From Pseudomonadota bacterium (GTDB taxonomy: Bacteria; Pseudomonadota; Alphaproteobacteria; Rhizobiales; Xanthobacteraceae), in the NCBI GenBank assembly GCA_018240595.1, contig JAFEFL010000063.1:172701-236700 (forward strand): a DNA stretch of 64,000 nucleotides. Direction: 5' to 3'. Shown piece by piece: positions 3,399 to 51,896 of this stretch. Numbering within the stretch: the first letter of the stretch is position 1; every line of letters starts with the position of its first letter. The position numbers were made by a program, and so were the translations under genes. The notes under the pieces are model-generated. The model searched no databases. It was not told the origin of the DNA and saw only the letters and a program-made list of their open reading frames with translations.

Positions 3399-3435
3399 CC
3401 GGAACGCGCCACCGGCCCGCCGGTCCGCTACCGCG

Positions 3436-3672
3436 ATGACCGCGCCGGCCCAGACCGTGCTCGACTTGCGCGGATTGCGCTGCCCGCAACCAGTGCTGCG
3501 CGCCAAGAAAGCGCTGCGCACCCTGTCGGCCGGTGACGCGCTGGTGCTCGAATGCACCGATCCGCTGACCGTCATCGACGTCCCTCATTTCTGCAACCAG
3601 ACGGGAAACCGCCTCGCCGCGCAGACGCGCGCGGACGGGCTTTACGTCTTCACCATCGTGAAACAAAGCTGA
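3436..3672 (+). CDS. TusA/SirA-family sulfur(selenium) carrier protein
   Basis: [13 protein letters not shown] CPxP motif; 78 aa; directly upstream of selD. Confidence 0.9.
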
Positions 3673-3694
3673 CGCGGTACGGGAGAGAGAGAGA

Positions 3695-4759
3695 ATGAAC
3701 ATCCAGACGCCGATCAGACTGAGCCACCTCTCCCACGGCGGCGGTTGCGGCTGCAAGCTGGCGCCGTCGGTGCTGCAGCAGTTGCTGTCCAGCCATCCGA
3801 CCGTGTCGCCCTACAAGCAACTGCTGGTCGGCGTCGAAACCGGCGACGACGCCGCGGTGTGGGAGCTCGATCCCGGCAACGCCAACGGCGTCTGCATCAT
3901 CGCCACCACCGACTTCTTCATGCCGATGGTCGATGACGCGCGCGACTTCGGCCGCATCGCCGCCACCAACGCGATCTCCGATGTCTATGCCATGGGCGGC
4001 ACGCCGATCTTCGCGCTCGCCATTCTCGGCATGCCGGTCGACAAGATACCGCCGGAGATGGTTCGCCAGATACTCGAAGGCGGCCAGTCGGTGTGCGACA
4101 GCGCCGGGATTCCGATCGCCGGCGGCCATTCCATCGATTCGCCAGAGCCGATCTACGGCCTCGCCGTCATCGGCACGGGGAGGAAAAGCGACATCCGCCG
4201 CAACGCCGACGCCAAGGCGGGCGATGCGCTGATCCTGACCAAGGCGCTGGGTGTCGGCATCTATTCGGCGGCGTTCAAGAAGAGCGCCCTGTCGCGCGCG
4301 GCCTATGACGAGTTCATCGCCACGACGACACTGCTCAACCGCGTCGGCGCCAAACTCGCCAAGGACGACGCTGTGCATGCCATGACCGACGTCACCGGCT
4401 TCGGACTGCTCGGCCATGCGCTGGAGATGGCGCGCGGCTCGGGCAAGACCGTGACGGTGGAGGCCAGCGCGCTGCCGTATCTCAAGGACGCCGCGGCGCT
4501 GGCGCAGCAGGGCTTCGTCACCGGCGCCTCGGGGCGCAACTGGAAGAGCTACGAGGCCGGCGTCGTGCTGCCGGACGGCACGCCGGACTGGCAGCGCCAG
4601 TTGCTGTGCGATCCGCAAACTTCCGGCGGCCTGCTGGTGTCCTGCGCGGCCGACAAGGCCGTCGCCGTTCTCGCGACGATCCAGACGGCCGGCTATCCGG
4701 CCGCCTGCATCATCGGCCGCGTCGACGACGGCAAGCCGCAAGTCGTCGTCAAGGCATGA
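3695..4759 (+). CDS. selD: Selenide, water dikinase (Cys form)
   Basis: SHGGGCGCK active-site motif; [47 protein letters not shown] motifs. Confidence 0.97.
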
Positions 4760-4774
4760 TCCGCACTTCGCCGG

Positions 4775-6169
4775 TCAAAGACTTGCGGCCACCTCATCGA
4801 CCGCGCCCTTGGCGGCGGCGACGATTTTGTCCGCTTCCTCGCGCGTCAGGCAGAGCGGCGGCGCAAAGCCCATGATGTCGCCCTGCGGCATGGCGCGGGC
4901 GATGACGCCGCGCTCGAGCAGCGCCGCGACGATGCGCGGGCCGACCTTGTCCTGCGCGTCGAAGAACACACGGTCGTCGCGGTCGCGCACGAATTCGACG
5001 GCGGCGAGCAGTCCCTCGCCGCGCACGTCGCCGACGTTGCGGTGCTTGTCGAACGCCGCCTTGAGCGCCTGCTTGAAATAGCCGCCGACCTCGCGGGCAT
5101 TATTGACCAGCTCGAGATCGTCGATCACGCCGAGATTGGCGACGCCGGCGGCGGCGCACAACGGATGCGACGAATAGGTCCAGCCGTGGCCGATGGCGCC
5201 GAATTCGTCGGAGCCCTTTTCGAGGATGCGCCACACCTTCTCCGACACGATGACGCCGGACAGCGGCGCGTAGGCGGAAGTCAGGCCCTTGGCGATGGTG
5301 ATCAGGTCCGGCTCGATGCCGTAGTGATCGGAGCCGAACATGCTGCCGAGGCGGCCGAAGCCGGTGATGACTTCGTCGGCAATGAGGAGAATGTCGTACT
5401 TCCTCAGAACCGCCTGGATCTTCGGCCAGTAGCCGGCCGGCGGCGGCACGATGCCGCCGGTTCCGAGCACCGGCTCGCCGATGAAGGCGGCGATGGTGTC
5501 CGGCCCTTCGGCGAGGATCATCTCCTCGAGCTTGTCGGCACAGAATTGCGAGAACTGCTCTTCGCTCTGCGAGCGGTCGGCGCGGCGGAAGTAATACGGC
5601 GCCTCAGTGTGCAGCACCGGCGCCTTCGGCAGATCGAACAGATTGTGGAAAGCGGCGAGCCCGGTCAGGCTGCCGGTCATGACGCCCGAGCCGTGATAGC
5701 CGCGCCAGCGCGAGATGATCTTCTTCTTTTGCGGGCGCTTGAGGACGTTGTTGACGTACCAGACCAGCTTGATGTTGGTCTCGTTGGCGTCGGAGCCGGA
5801 CAGGCCGAAGAACACACGGCTCATGTTTTTCGGCGCGCGGTCGATGATCATCTTGGCGAGCCGGATCGACGGCTCGCTGCCGTGGCCGACATAGGCGTGA
5901 TAATACGACAGTTGCGCCGCCTGCGCGGCGATGGCGTCCGTGATCTCGCGGCGGCCATAGCCGACATTGACGCAATAGAGTCCGGCGAAGGCGTCGAGGC
6001 TGCGCTTGCCCTCGCGATCGACGATATAAACGCCCTCGCCGCCGGCGACGATGCGGTTCGGCGTTTCGCCGCGCGCGTGCTGCGCCATGTGCGTCGAGGG
6101 GTGGAAGAAGTGGTCGCGATCCCAGGCCGTCAATTCGTTGCCGGAGGCTTGTGCGGTTCTGTTCAGCAT
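4775..6169 (-). CDS. doeD: Class III PLP aminotransferase, diaminobutyrate transaminase of ectoine catabolism (Atf/DoeD)
   Basis: LDAFAGLYCVNVGYGR, IADEVITGFGRLG, TIAKGLTS motifs; last gene of the eut/ehu operon. Confidence 0.85.
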   Translation of the reverse strand: MLNRTAQASGNELTAWDRDHFFHPSTHMAQHARGETPNRIVAGGEGVYIVDREGKRSLDAFAGLYCVNVGYGRREITDAIAAQAAQLSYYHAYVGHGSEPSIRLAKMIIDRAPKNMSRVFFGLSGSDANETNIKLVWYVNNVLKRPQKKKIISRWRGYHGSGVMTGSLTGLAAFHNLFDLPKAPVLHTEAPYYFRRADRSQSEEQFSQFCADKLEEMILAEGPDTIAAFIGEPVLGTGGIVPPPAGYWPKIQAVLRKYDILLIADEVITGFGRLGSMFGSDHYGIEPDLITIAKGLTSAYAPLSGVIVSEKVWRILEKGSDEFGAIGHGWTYSSHPLCAAAGVANLGVIDDLELVNNAREVGGYFKQALKAAFDKHRNVGDVRGEGLLAAVEFVRDRDDRVFFDAQDKVGPRIVAALLERGVIARAMPQGDIMGFAPPLCLTREEADKIVAAAKGAVDEVAASL

Positions 6170-42228: not shown

Positions 42229-42304
42229 TGGTGGGCCCGGCAGGACTCGAACCTGCAACCAGACCGTTATGAGCGGTCGGCTCTAACCATTGAGCTACGG
42301 GCCC
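42229..42304 (-). tRNA. tRNA-Ile2 (anticodon CAU, lysidine type) with encoded CCA
   Basis: Reverse complement GGGCCCGTAGCTCAATGGTTAGAGCCGACCGCTCATAACGGTCTGGTTGCAGGTTCGAGTCCTGCCGGGCCCACCA; cloverleaf; paired G1-C72 excludes fMet; Ile2 versus elongator Met assigned by resemblance only. Confidence 0.9.
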
Positions 42305-49057: not shown

Positions 49058-49128
49058 CCGTTCGTTCCCGCGCAAGCGGGAACCCATCTTTTGAGAGACT
49101 GGGTCCCCGCTTTCGCGGGGACGAACGG
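49058..49128. repeat. Inverted REP-like doublet
   Basis: CCGTTCGTTCCCGCGCAAGCGGGAACCCA-N13-TGGGTCCCCGCTTTCGCGGGGACGAACGG; the two halves are near reverse complements, each a hairpin. Confidence 0.85.
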
Positions 49129-50442: not shown

Positions 50443-50820
50443 TCAGCGTTTCGGCAGCTCCGGCGCGGCGGGGGCGGCGGCGGCCGTCTCGGCGGCGCGG
50501 CGCTCGTGGAACGCACGGGCAGCCTGCATGTCGTCGAGCAGGCGGCGCCTCATCCGGGCATCGCGCCGCGCGGCGATCTGCGGCGGCACGTCGTCCTCCG
50601 GCGGCAGCGGCGGCGCCGCGGCGCATTCGATATCCGGCGCGAAGCAGCGCCGGGAGCGCCGGCACATGGCGTGCTCGCAACCCTGCCACCAGCGCTGCTG
50701 ATCCGCGATGAGCCGCATGATCTTGCGCGCGAGGCGCAGGCGCTGCGTGTCGATATCCTGCGGCTTCGTATCGTCGTTATCGTCCCGGTCGGGACGCCGG
50801 CTGTCGCTCATGCGCGGCAT
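50443..50820 (-). CDS. Small hypothetical protein with C-x4-C-x5-C-x6-C motif
   Basis: GGAG RBS 8 nt before ATG; WWQGCEHAMCRRSRRCFAPDIEC; 125 aa. Confidence 0.65.
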   Translation of the reverse strand: MPRMSDSRRPDRDDNDDTKPQDIDTQRLRLARKIMRLIADQQRWWQGCEHAMCRRSRRCFAPDIECAAAPPLPPEDDVPPQIAARRDARMRRRLLDDMQAARAFHERRAAETAAAAPAAPELPKR

Positions 50821-50833
50821 GATGCTGTCTCCA

Positions 50834-50894
50834 TGGCTTGGCAGATTGGCTTGGCTAAATGGCTTGGCGCGTTGGCTTGACGAGATGGATTGGC
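50834..50894. repeat. Five direct repeats with 13-bp period (TGGCTTGGC-N4)
   Basis: 9-mers start at 50834, 50847, 50860 (TGGCTTGGC), 50873 (TGGCTTGAC) and 50886 (TGGATTGGC). Confidence 0.9.
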
Positions 50895-50913
50895 GAAGCG
50901 AGAGCGGGCGAAA

Positions 50914-51440
50914 GGCGCCTGCGTGATGGTGAAGAAGGCGGCCGGCCCTGAAAACGGGCGCGCGGCCTCACCCGTGTTGTTTGAGCGGCGCCGGGTACGC
51001 CGTCGTCGGAGGTCTTGGGCCTTGCCCTCACTTCGTCTCCACGCGGAGAAAAGTGCGAGGGCGCGGAGCGCCGTGAAACGCGGAGGTTTGCGAGACCTCC
51101 TGAGCGGCCGGCGCGGCCGCCCGAGACGCTGGCGAGGCGTCTTCTCTCCGCTTGCGATCGCGGAGAGGCGCCTCACGGCGCTCCACGTTGTGGCGATTTC
51201 TGTCCGCGGGGCCGTAGCTTCCGGATGACGGCTGCGATCGGCGCCCCTCGCGGGACGACGACCTCCGGCGGGCTTTCGCCCGCCTTCACCGGCACCGCGT
51301 CCAGCCCACTGAAGGGCGGGGGTTCGTAGTAACCCCGGACGGCTGCCCGCGGCCTCCCGGAGGCGGGGTTACGAGCCCCGCCCGCAGGCGCCACACCCTG
51401 CCCCACGTTCAGCGAGCGTCTGCAGAACGCCCCTCGCCTG
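50914..51440. ncRNA. Candidate large structured non-coding RNA or non-autonomous element (strand unresolved)
   Basis: Nested helices 50914-23/51383-92, 50985-94/51289-98, 51007-14/51260-67, 51065-76/51173-84 and 51314-37/51364-83, plus at least 8 local hairpins; no credible ORF. Confidence 0.6.
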
Positions 51441-51456
51441 GGACAAGGCGATTTGC

Positions 51457-51506
51457 AAGGTATAGAAGCCTAGGATGGAAGTCAAGGGGCTAAATTAGAC
51501 CCTTGA
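51457..51506 (-). promoter_or_regulatory. Sigma70-like promoter with overlapping palindrome, pointing into the structured element
   Basis: Minus strand TTGACT-N17-TACCTT (51485-80, 51462-57); palindrome TCAAGGG-G-CTAA-A-TTAG-A-CCCTTGA at 51482-51506. Confidence 0.5.
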
Positions 51507-51552
51507 GCGTTCGATAGCCCGAGACACTTTTCCAAAGTTCGACGCGCCCAAA

Positions 51553-51639
51553 CCGTCATGGCCGGGCTTGGCCCGGCCATCCATGTCTAGAGTCCGTGCG
51601 AAGAAAGTTCTGGATCCCCGCTTTCGCGGGGATGAGCGG
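51553..51639. repeat. Inverted doublet of two different REP-like units
   Basis: CCGTCATGGCCGGGCTTGGCCCGGCCATCCA … TGGATCCCCGCTTTCGCGGGGATGAGCGG. Confidence 0.85.
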
Positions 51640-51647
51640 AGAATGGA

Positions 51648-51896
51648 TCACGCCTCGTTCAGCGATGCGCCGCGGGCGCTCATCGTGTCCTGGCCCTTGC
51701 GCGTCAGCATGAACTTGGCGCCGAGCGCCGCCATATCCTGGTGCGAACAGGTGACGTAGTCGCGCGCGATCAGCGAGGCGACGCGTTCCGCCCGCTCCGG
51801 CTTGTCCTCGTCATGCGCATATTCGCCGATGTCGGCGAGCAGCGCGATGTCGTCGTTGTCGAGATCGTCGCCGGTCGGAACGGGGTTGTCGGACAT
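51648..51896 (-). CDS. Small hypothetical protein (82 aa)
   Basis: GGGAGG RBS; acidic N-terminus; wHTH-like LIARDYV…FMLTRKG ending. Confidence 0.6.
   Translation of the reverse strand: MSDNPVPTGDDLDNDDIALLADIGEYAHDEDKPERAERVASLIARDYVTCSHQDMAALGAKFMLTRKGQDTMSARGASLNEA

Follow-up and report, generated by a model that had tools for sequence, protein, structure and literature searches.

A small arginine-rich four-cysteine protein family encoded behind a large structured RNA in Pseudolabrys-like bacteria

Large bacterial non-coding RNAs of unknown function are rare, and experiments on such RNAs usually start best from a dedicated protein encoded next to them. In Bacillota, the OLE RNA is large, abundant and structured and is adjoined by the small protein gene oapA, which encodes a membrane protein, accompanies nearly every ole gene and belongs to a family restricted to that context. 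The ssrS gene of Gammaproteobacteria, which specifies the stable 6S RNA, is followed by the read-through protein gene ygfA, with no obligate functional tie between the two. In autoregulatory ribosomal-protein leaders, too, the gene of a small basic protein is preceded by a structured RNA, and helices compete near the Shine-Dalgarno (SD) sequence; in those systems it is the protein that is deeply conserved and not the leader RNA. On the protein side, zinc knuckles and ribbons (retroviral nucleocapsid CCHC, ribosomal Cys4 proteins) are small, basic, Cys-rich modules flanked by arginines. Finally, the small terminases (TerS) of gene transfer agents (GTAs) and phages contact the large terminase (TerL) through a short helix; in the RcGTA protein gp1 the C-terminal helix binds the TerL ATPase domain (PMC6854486).

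Here we analyse a 64,000-nucleotide stretch of a Xanthobacteraceae contig (the window), in which an ORF of 125 codons with an ATG start (50443..50820, (−)) follows a structured RNA of ~0.4-0.5 kb (about 50951-51452, (−)). The locus resembles each of these systems in part. It shares with OLE/oapA a large, abundant structured RNA and an adjoining small protein gene whose family is restricted to that context, but the ORF accompanies only ~10% of the RNA loci, and its product, a soluble and basic protein, is unrelated to the OLE partner in sequence and fold. The order of a stable RNA gene and a downstream protein gene recalls ssrS-ygfA; ygfA, however, represents a widespread enzyme family found elsewhere too, whereas the Cys4 family occurs nowhere else, and the RNA is multi-branched, without the 6S-type rod or an Rfam match. 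In contrast to the ribosomal-protein leaders, the RNA is an autonomous gene, far more conserved and widespread than the protein. The cysteine spacing C-x4-C-x5-C-x6-C contains neither CxxC nor CCHC and finds no match in Pfam, PDB or Foldseek. As for the terminases, the Cys4 family has a short helix in common with TerL-adjacent proteins of ~250 aa, with which the comparison was made; in the Cys4 protein this helix is N-terminal and followed by the Cys knuckle, and the gene lies away from any terminase.

The 125-aa ORF is a real and presumably translated gene. Its GC content at codon positions 1/2/3 is 0.75/0.56/0.90, and the third-position value is like that of the neighbouring aminotransferase, SLT, OmpA-like and MsrA genes (GC3 0.85-0.92), while no frame bias is seen in the 630 nt 5′ of the ORF or in overlapping plus-strand ORFs. 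An SD sequence, GGAG (50829..50832, (−)), lies 8 nt 5′ of the ATG, and an SD (GGAG, AGGAG or GGAGG) with an ATG 40-77 codons ahead of the conserved Trp is kept in 20 of 21 family loci, which bears out the good ribosome-binding site noted in an earlier sequence-only reading of this DNA. Codon-position GC, the 111 matches of an exhaustive search, the Trp, Cys and Pro residues invariant in a 39-sequence alignment, the conserved SD and ATG, and the dN/dS among relatives of 0.37-0.8 thus all set the ORF apart from a chance frame. The same dN/dS values mean that the protein is fast-evolving or weakly constrained outside its fixed core. The syntenic Pseudolabrys orthologue (L005:6001-6342, P0124) shares only 35% identity with the window protein, and its third Cys is replaced by Ser, whereas the RNA flanking it is 87% identical to that of the window, which suggests that the ORF evolves fast or is beginning to decay.

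The protein would consist of four parts, namely a variable N-terminal tail, an acidic stretch with a conserved amphipathic helix, an Arg-rich four-Cys knuckle and a long C-terminal helix. The acidic stretch and helix (DNDDTKPQDIDTQRLRLARKI...) occupy codons 14-42 (50695..50781, (−)) and match the helix of the TerL-adjacent proteins. The knuckle W-x2-C-x4-C-RRxRx-C-xAPx3-C (codons 45-66, 50623..50688, (−)) is the invariant family core. In the window protein it reads RWWQGC-EHAM-C-RRSRR-C-FAPDIE-C, with W45, C48, C53, C59 and C66, so that the previously described motif W-W-x-x-C-x4-C-RRSRR-C-x6-C is confirmed as C48-x4-C53-x5-C59-x6-C66. An AlphaFold2 model (pLDDT 85.5, pTM 0.50) places helices at residues 23-41, 51-56 and 80-115; Foldseek finds nothing similar to it in PDB or BFVD.

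Searching 5.8 billion proteins by word index recovered nothing but the query, and an exact-sequence look-up of contigs with the ORF gave no match. HMMER, run exhaustively against 1.84 billion cluster representatives, gave 111 matches at E<=1e-3; one of them is a spurious repeat protein, and the ~110 relatives measure 76-237 aa, nearly all of them 76-180 aa. In an alignment of 39 sequences W45, C48, C53, C59, P62 and C66 are invariant, so that a lack of conservation of the cysteines, named earlier as a refutation, is not seen, and the consensus is DDxxPxDIDxFRxxLARRI...WRxCxExxCRRxRxCxAPxIxCSNAPPxPP. The exact spacing W-x2-C-x4-C-x5-C-x6-C is found in 117 of the 124 family sequences collected. 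The second Cys is followed by Arg at position +2 in 116 of 117 members and by Arg or Lys at +1 and +4 in ~108-109 of 117, and the median pI of the family is ~10. The family, which the sequence-only reading did not recognise, is matched by nothing in Pfam, NCBIfam, PHROGs, PADLOC, PDB sequences and Foldseek. All source names of its members are 'hypothetical protein', the ORF is absent from IMG/VR, and our literature search found no description of either the Cys4 protein or the upstream RNA. The named records are all metagenome-assembled genomes (MAGs) of Pseudolabrys, Xanthobacteraceae, Hyphomicrobiales or 'uncultured Alphaproteobacteria', and the family does not extend beyond Pseudolabrys-like Hyphomicrobiales from soil.

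Most likely the four cysteines coordinate a metal, which would be Zn or perhaps the iron of an Fe-S cluster. The zinc-binding domain proposed earlier holds up in that the Arg-rich Cys knuckle is the family core; the assignment to zinc itself stays inferential, and the spacing is not that of a CxxC zinc ribbon. Zinc ribbons and treble clefs carry two CxxC or CxxH pairs ~10-30 residues apart, whereas 117 of 124 sequences have C-x4-C-x5-C-x6-C, and there is no zinc-ribbon match in Pfam. The spacings of Wbl (C-x(n)-C-x2-C-x5-C) and Rrf2 proteins (C-x5-C-x5-C plus His/Cys) also differ, again with no Pfam match. Judged by its composition, the Arg-rich basic knuckle probably binds nucleic acid.

The element upstream of the ORF is a genuine structured RNA absent from Rfam 15. 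It is marked by strong covariation, a conserved promoter and abundance in metatranscriptomes, and its conserved 3′ end at ~50951 lies 130 nt before the ATG, so that the original description of the ORF as immediately downstream of a structured element is accurate. Folding and alignment define an RNA body (51055..51437, (−); GCGAGGGGC ... GCCCUCGC) enclosed by the closing helix P1, in which GCGAGGGGC at 51437-51429 pairs with GCCCUCGC at 51062-55. The 640 nt 5′ of the ORF fold with z = -5.2, and the most conserved core (51188..51395, (−)) scores 158 bits with covariance model R1. Of 105 predicted pairs, 31 show compensatory changes in a MAFFT-based alignment of 7 RNA sequences. This agrees with a 94-sequence alignment fitted to the covariance model, in which 96.9% of cells are paired compared to 38-50% with the partners slid, 41 of 60 pairs have changed on both sides and none of 500 shuffles reaches the observed values. 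Identity to the window RNA is 86.6% in L004-L006 and 73-74% in L008 and L010-L013, all 5′ of a family ORF.

A degenerate pattern built from the invariant RNA columns matched at least 120 metagenome contigs, and a covariance model of the 196-position core confirms 114 RNA loci among the matches listed, with 38-193 bits. The core model also matches, weakly (28 bits, E 2e-5), a site at L157:8584-8743 (+), on the opposite strand of an OmpA-family gene. Rfam 15 contains no relevant match to the window RNA even at E<=10, with everything below any gathering threshold, ten further RNA loci have no Rfam match either, and ARAGORN detects no tmRNA in the upstream region. RNase P, tmRNA, 6S RNA and the cobalamin and glycine riboswitches were rejected by eye as identities, and none was matched in Rfam or by ARAGORN. 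The RNA is also absent from PLSDB plasmids and IMG/VR, and is itself a candidate for a new class of large non-coding RNA.

The upstream RNA is abundant and strongly expressed. Positions 51177-51435 are covered in four metatranscriptomes, with a depth of 400-500 in one biofilm library, and one soil RNA run contains a near-identical contig over 50977-51238. The promoter-like site CTTGAC...TATACC (51459..51486, (−)) is conserved 5′ of the RNA in unrelated loci, with the consensus CTTGAC...TATA(Y)(Y)CC. Just 5′ of it an 82-aa acidic ORF (51648-51896, (−)) has a gene-like GC3 of 0.88 and belongs to no Pfam or PADLOC family. A REP-like palindromic element (51522-51662, translating as ...PRFRGDERR...) reaches a depth in the thousands in metagenomes of soil and sediment, and further REP-like copies are found near 49100 and at related loci. 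The conserved RNA ends in a hairpin, CGGGUG/CGCCCG followed by UUUU (50951..50974, (−)), which as read from the sequence is terminator-like. A scan of the minus strand for consensus promoters and terminators returned nothing, the hairpin at 50974-50951 being under its threshold. In the RNA runs examined the RNA is covered and the ORF is not, and the coverage of isolate RNA runs is too shallow to define transcript ends. Co-transcription of the ORF with the RNA from a promoter at ~51460, as first proposed, is plausible, but the hairpin with its UUUU lies between the two and the RNA runs stop short of the ORF.

The linkage between the two genes is one-way, with the ORF found only behind the RNA and the RNA mostly (~90% of sampled loci) without the ORF. 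Seventeen distinct family loci have the ORF directly behind the RNA core (the window, L004/5/6/L085, L008, L010-L013, L159/160, L058, L061, L078, L086, L092, L115, L127, L141 and L149). All family genes with readable upstream DNA sit behind the RNA, its 3′ remnant or, in L158, its last ~20 nt, which answers the question whether homologues consistently follow the same element. In L001-3 and L007 the ORF is intact and only the 3′ 100-190 nt of the RNA are left, with differing deletion end points and a divergent DUF1330 gene adjoining the remnants; a REP-like copy replaces the RNA 5′ core in L001. Together with L158, whose ORF is also intact, three lineages (L001, L007, L158) have lost the 5′ core and kept the ORF. 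The possibility that homologues occur independently of the element, named earlier as a refutation, is thus realised only in that these ORFs outlive the 5′ core; none with readable upstream DNA is found away from the RNA or its remnant. Loss of both is seen as well. L157 is closely related to the window, and in L157:4690-5000 AT-rich DNA takes the place of the RNA and the first ~25-40 ORF codons. A sediment-metagenome contig (run X1) joins 50453 to 51334, an 880-nt deletion that takes out the ORF along with most of the RNA.

The organism of the window is probably Pseudolabrys-like: its gene order, RNA, ORF, class-V aminotransferase and SLT_2, is repeated in L005 (a Pseudolabrys sp. MAG), where the DNA of the RNA core and of the beginning of the aminotransferase gene is 81-87% identical. 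Other neighbours vary among family loci (aminotransferase, cyclase, SLT, thioesterase, CSD). In a neighbour-joining tree of RNA cores the RNAs that carry the ORF are dispersed, so that the RNA-ORF pair seems to be old and repeatedly lost. Among the matches listed, the family ORF is present at 6 of 62 metagenome RNA loci with at least 900 nt downstream and at 10 of 114 model-confirmed RNA loci, and the remaining loci contain no cryptic Cys motif. Of 53 ORF-less RNA loci, also among the matches listed, 25 are followed most closely by a same-strand gene and 20 by a convergent one, and no gene was detected downstream of the other 8; the same-strand genes include groES, gshA, msrA, prfC and genes for ABC binding proteins, MBL-fold proteins and SDR. 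The RNA is thus not, as a riboswitch or cis-acting leader would be, always the 5′ UTR of a same-strand gene (25 of 53 among the matches listed). The ~90% of sampled loci without the ORF and the convergent neighbours indicate that the RNA is an autonomous gene, and the idea of a dedicated leader or partner of the ORF has to be given up. As the RNA functions without the ORF in ~90% of sampled loci, any partnership would be accessory. Conversely, the position of every family member found, 3′ of the RNA or of what is left of it, makes the protein a candidate for an accessory partner of this RNA or for a passenger regulated by it.

The 3′ region of the RNA contains several elements that may bear on expression of the ORF. 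The P1 3′ strand (CCCUCGC) can pair either with its 5′ strand or with a downstream copy of that strand (GUGAGGG), forming an alternative hairpin at about 51025..51060 (−). Both pairings covary, and variable positions of the middle strand are matched by both partners, e.g. in L037, L089, L093, L084, L111 and L152. A script test of the two helices is crude (median helix 7 compared to 6 in shuffles), and the proposed switch is therefore based on the individual covarying examples. Competition of a closing helix with a second helix, as in the expression platforms of riboswitches, is thus present, and suggests a conformational switch. Further 3′, a conserved ACGGCGUACCCGGCGCCG hairpin (50986..51003, (−)), present in ORF-less RNA loci too, has a loop ACCCG that can pair with a downstream CGGGU in a pseudoknot-like manner. 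The conserved SD context CCGGAGA sits 3′ of a UCCGG-containing hairpin, which may possibly sequester the SD. By contrast, a 13-nt tandem repeat (GCCAAGCC + 5 nt; ~4-5 copies at 50834..50897 (−), in the 5′ UTR) is specific to the window; its absence from the syntenic Pseudolabrys locus, and also from other related loci, puts it outside the conserved module.

We tentatively favour a model in which expression of the ORF is coupled to the RNA gene and the protein acts as an accessory partner or autoregulator. The ORF would be expressed from transcripts reading through, or starting inside, the 3′ region of the RNA gene. Toggling of this region between P1 and the alternative hairpin could couple protein output to synthesis or folding of the RNA. 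The protein would then bind nucleic acid via its CRRxRxC knuckle, the likeliest target being the same RNA or its 3′ region, and would serve as an accessory RNP subunit or feedback regulator. A dependence of ORF expression on the RNA 3′ region would fit the fact that L001 and L007 have kept this region, and also the conserved hairpin and SD context; co-transcription and recognition of the RNA itself by the protein are conjecture. Several observations count against the coupled model, namely the many RNA loci that do without the ORF, the intact ORFs without the RNA 5′ core in L001, L007 and L158, the Ser at the third Cys in L005, the weak constraint outside the core that dN/dS indicates, the lack of RNA-seq coverage of the ORF, and the hairpin with UUUU between RNA and ORF. 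If the coupled model is true, the Cys4 proteins represent a new small-protein fold and family without a relative in any curated library, encoded nowhere but 3′ of a large, strongly covarying, uncatalogued and highly expressed bacterial RNA. The protein would then provide a direct route to the study of this RNA in Pseudolabrys-like soil bacteria.

A rather less probable, still serious alternative is that the protein is a regulated passenger, for which the 3′ switch of the RNA is merely a leader or promoter while the protein has an unrelated job, e.g. in Zn- or Fe-S-based redox function or metal stress. Survival of the ORF with the RNA 3′ part alone fits this, as do the competition between P1 and the alternative hairpin, the possible SD-sequestering hairpin and the varied genes, including gshA, msrA and groES, that ORF-less RNAs precede. 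Fe-S regulators have ligand loops with closely spaced cysteines, and the close Cys spacings of the family recall them. However, a generic leader leaves unexplained why the family occurs nowhere else, the RNA is no leader in at least 20 of the 53 ORF-less loci, and the conserved RRxR of the knuckle and the basicity of the protein point to binding of a polyanion.

The N-terminal helix provides a second, independent hypothesis, a terminase-interacting modulator that would act on a GTA or prophage packaging motor through a TerS-type helix; we regard this as unlikely. Loci were retrieved with the peptide pattern P[AD]D[IM]D[EKA]FR[NR], derived from the Cys4 family, which gave 23 loci (L014-L036). 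Alignments A1 and A2 had proved too diverse for locus retrieval, whereas a four-sequence alignment worked, although its second peptide pattern drew a different family. Most of L014-L036 encode a readable protein of 230-305 aa, with a few short fragments or mis-extended frames, and the C-termini of these ~250-aa proteins are invariant (...PADIDEFRxxLARRIxxFV). In L017 the gene (3416-4144) abuts a large terminase (~4140-5378) with Terminase_6N and 6C domains, and L034 has the same arrangement. Profile-profile comparison of the two families gives a probability of 97.6% and an E value of 4e-12 over 29 columns, for a second set that was selected by the motif. The TerL-adjacent family has more than 600 members, all unannotated, and Pfam, NCBIfam and PHROG give it no support as TerS; by gene position alone it is likely to be the small-terminase analogue of a GTA or prophage in Pseudolabrys-like bacteria.

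The helix match, a genuine resemblance, and the presence of both families in Pseudolabrys speak for such a modulator. On the other hand, the TerS-like set was fetched by that very motif, which introduces ascertainment bias, and the TerS identity of its members derives from gene position. The helix is C-terminal in the TerL-adjacent proteins and N-terminal in the Cys4 protein. Small-terminase genes lie directly 5′ of the large terminase, yet no Cys4 locus contains a terminase nearby, and neither the Cys4 family nor the RNA occurs in IMG/VR. Less probable again is a combination of both ideas, in which the Cys4 protein would be an adaptor, docked by its helix on a GTA or prophage TerL and binding the abundant RNA, or some other nucleic acid, with its metal knuckle. 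Such an adaptor would link a new housekeeping-like non-coding RNA to the way in which a DNA-packaging motor is controlled or selects its cargo.

The suggestion that the ORF encodes a toxin neutralised by the upstream RNA, as in type III toxin-antitoxin systems, recommends itself by the order of RNA and ORF and by the short tandem repeat in the window, but is very improbable, because the 13-nt repeats are window-specific and no conserved tandem-repeat antitoxin exists, the RNA is large, single-copy, structured and mostly without the ORF, intact ORFs exist that lack the RNA core, and neither PADLOC nor Pfam shows a ToxN/AbiQ/CptN-type match or PADLOC any other. Equally improbable is an untranslated chance ORF within GC-rich DNA, a view that could draw on the word-indexed search and the transcript data without ORF coverage, but is opposed by the gene-like GC3, the SD and ATG kept across loci, dN/dS below 1 and Trp, Cys and Pro residues held in 117 of 124 relatives. 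Elsewhere the window contains a tRNA-Met gene (42229-42304, (−)) and a SECIS_3 selenocysteine insertion element (85 bits; 205-263, (−)).
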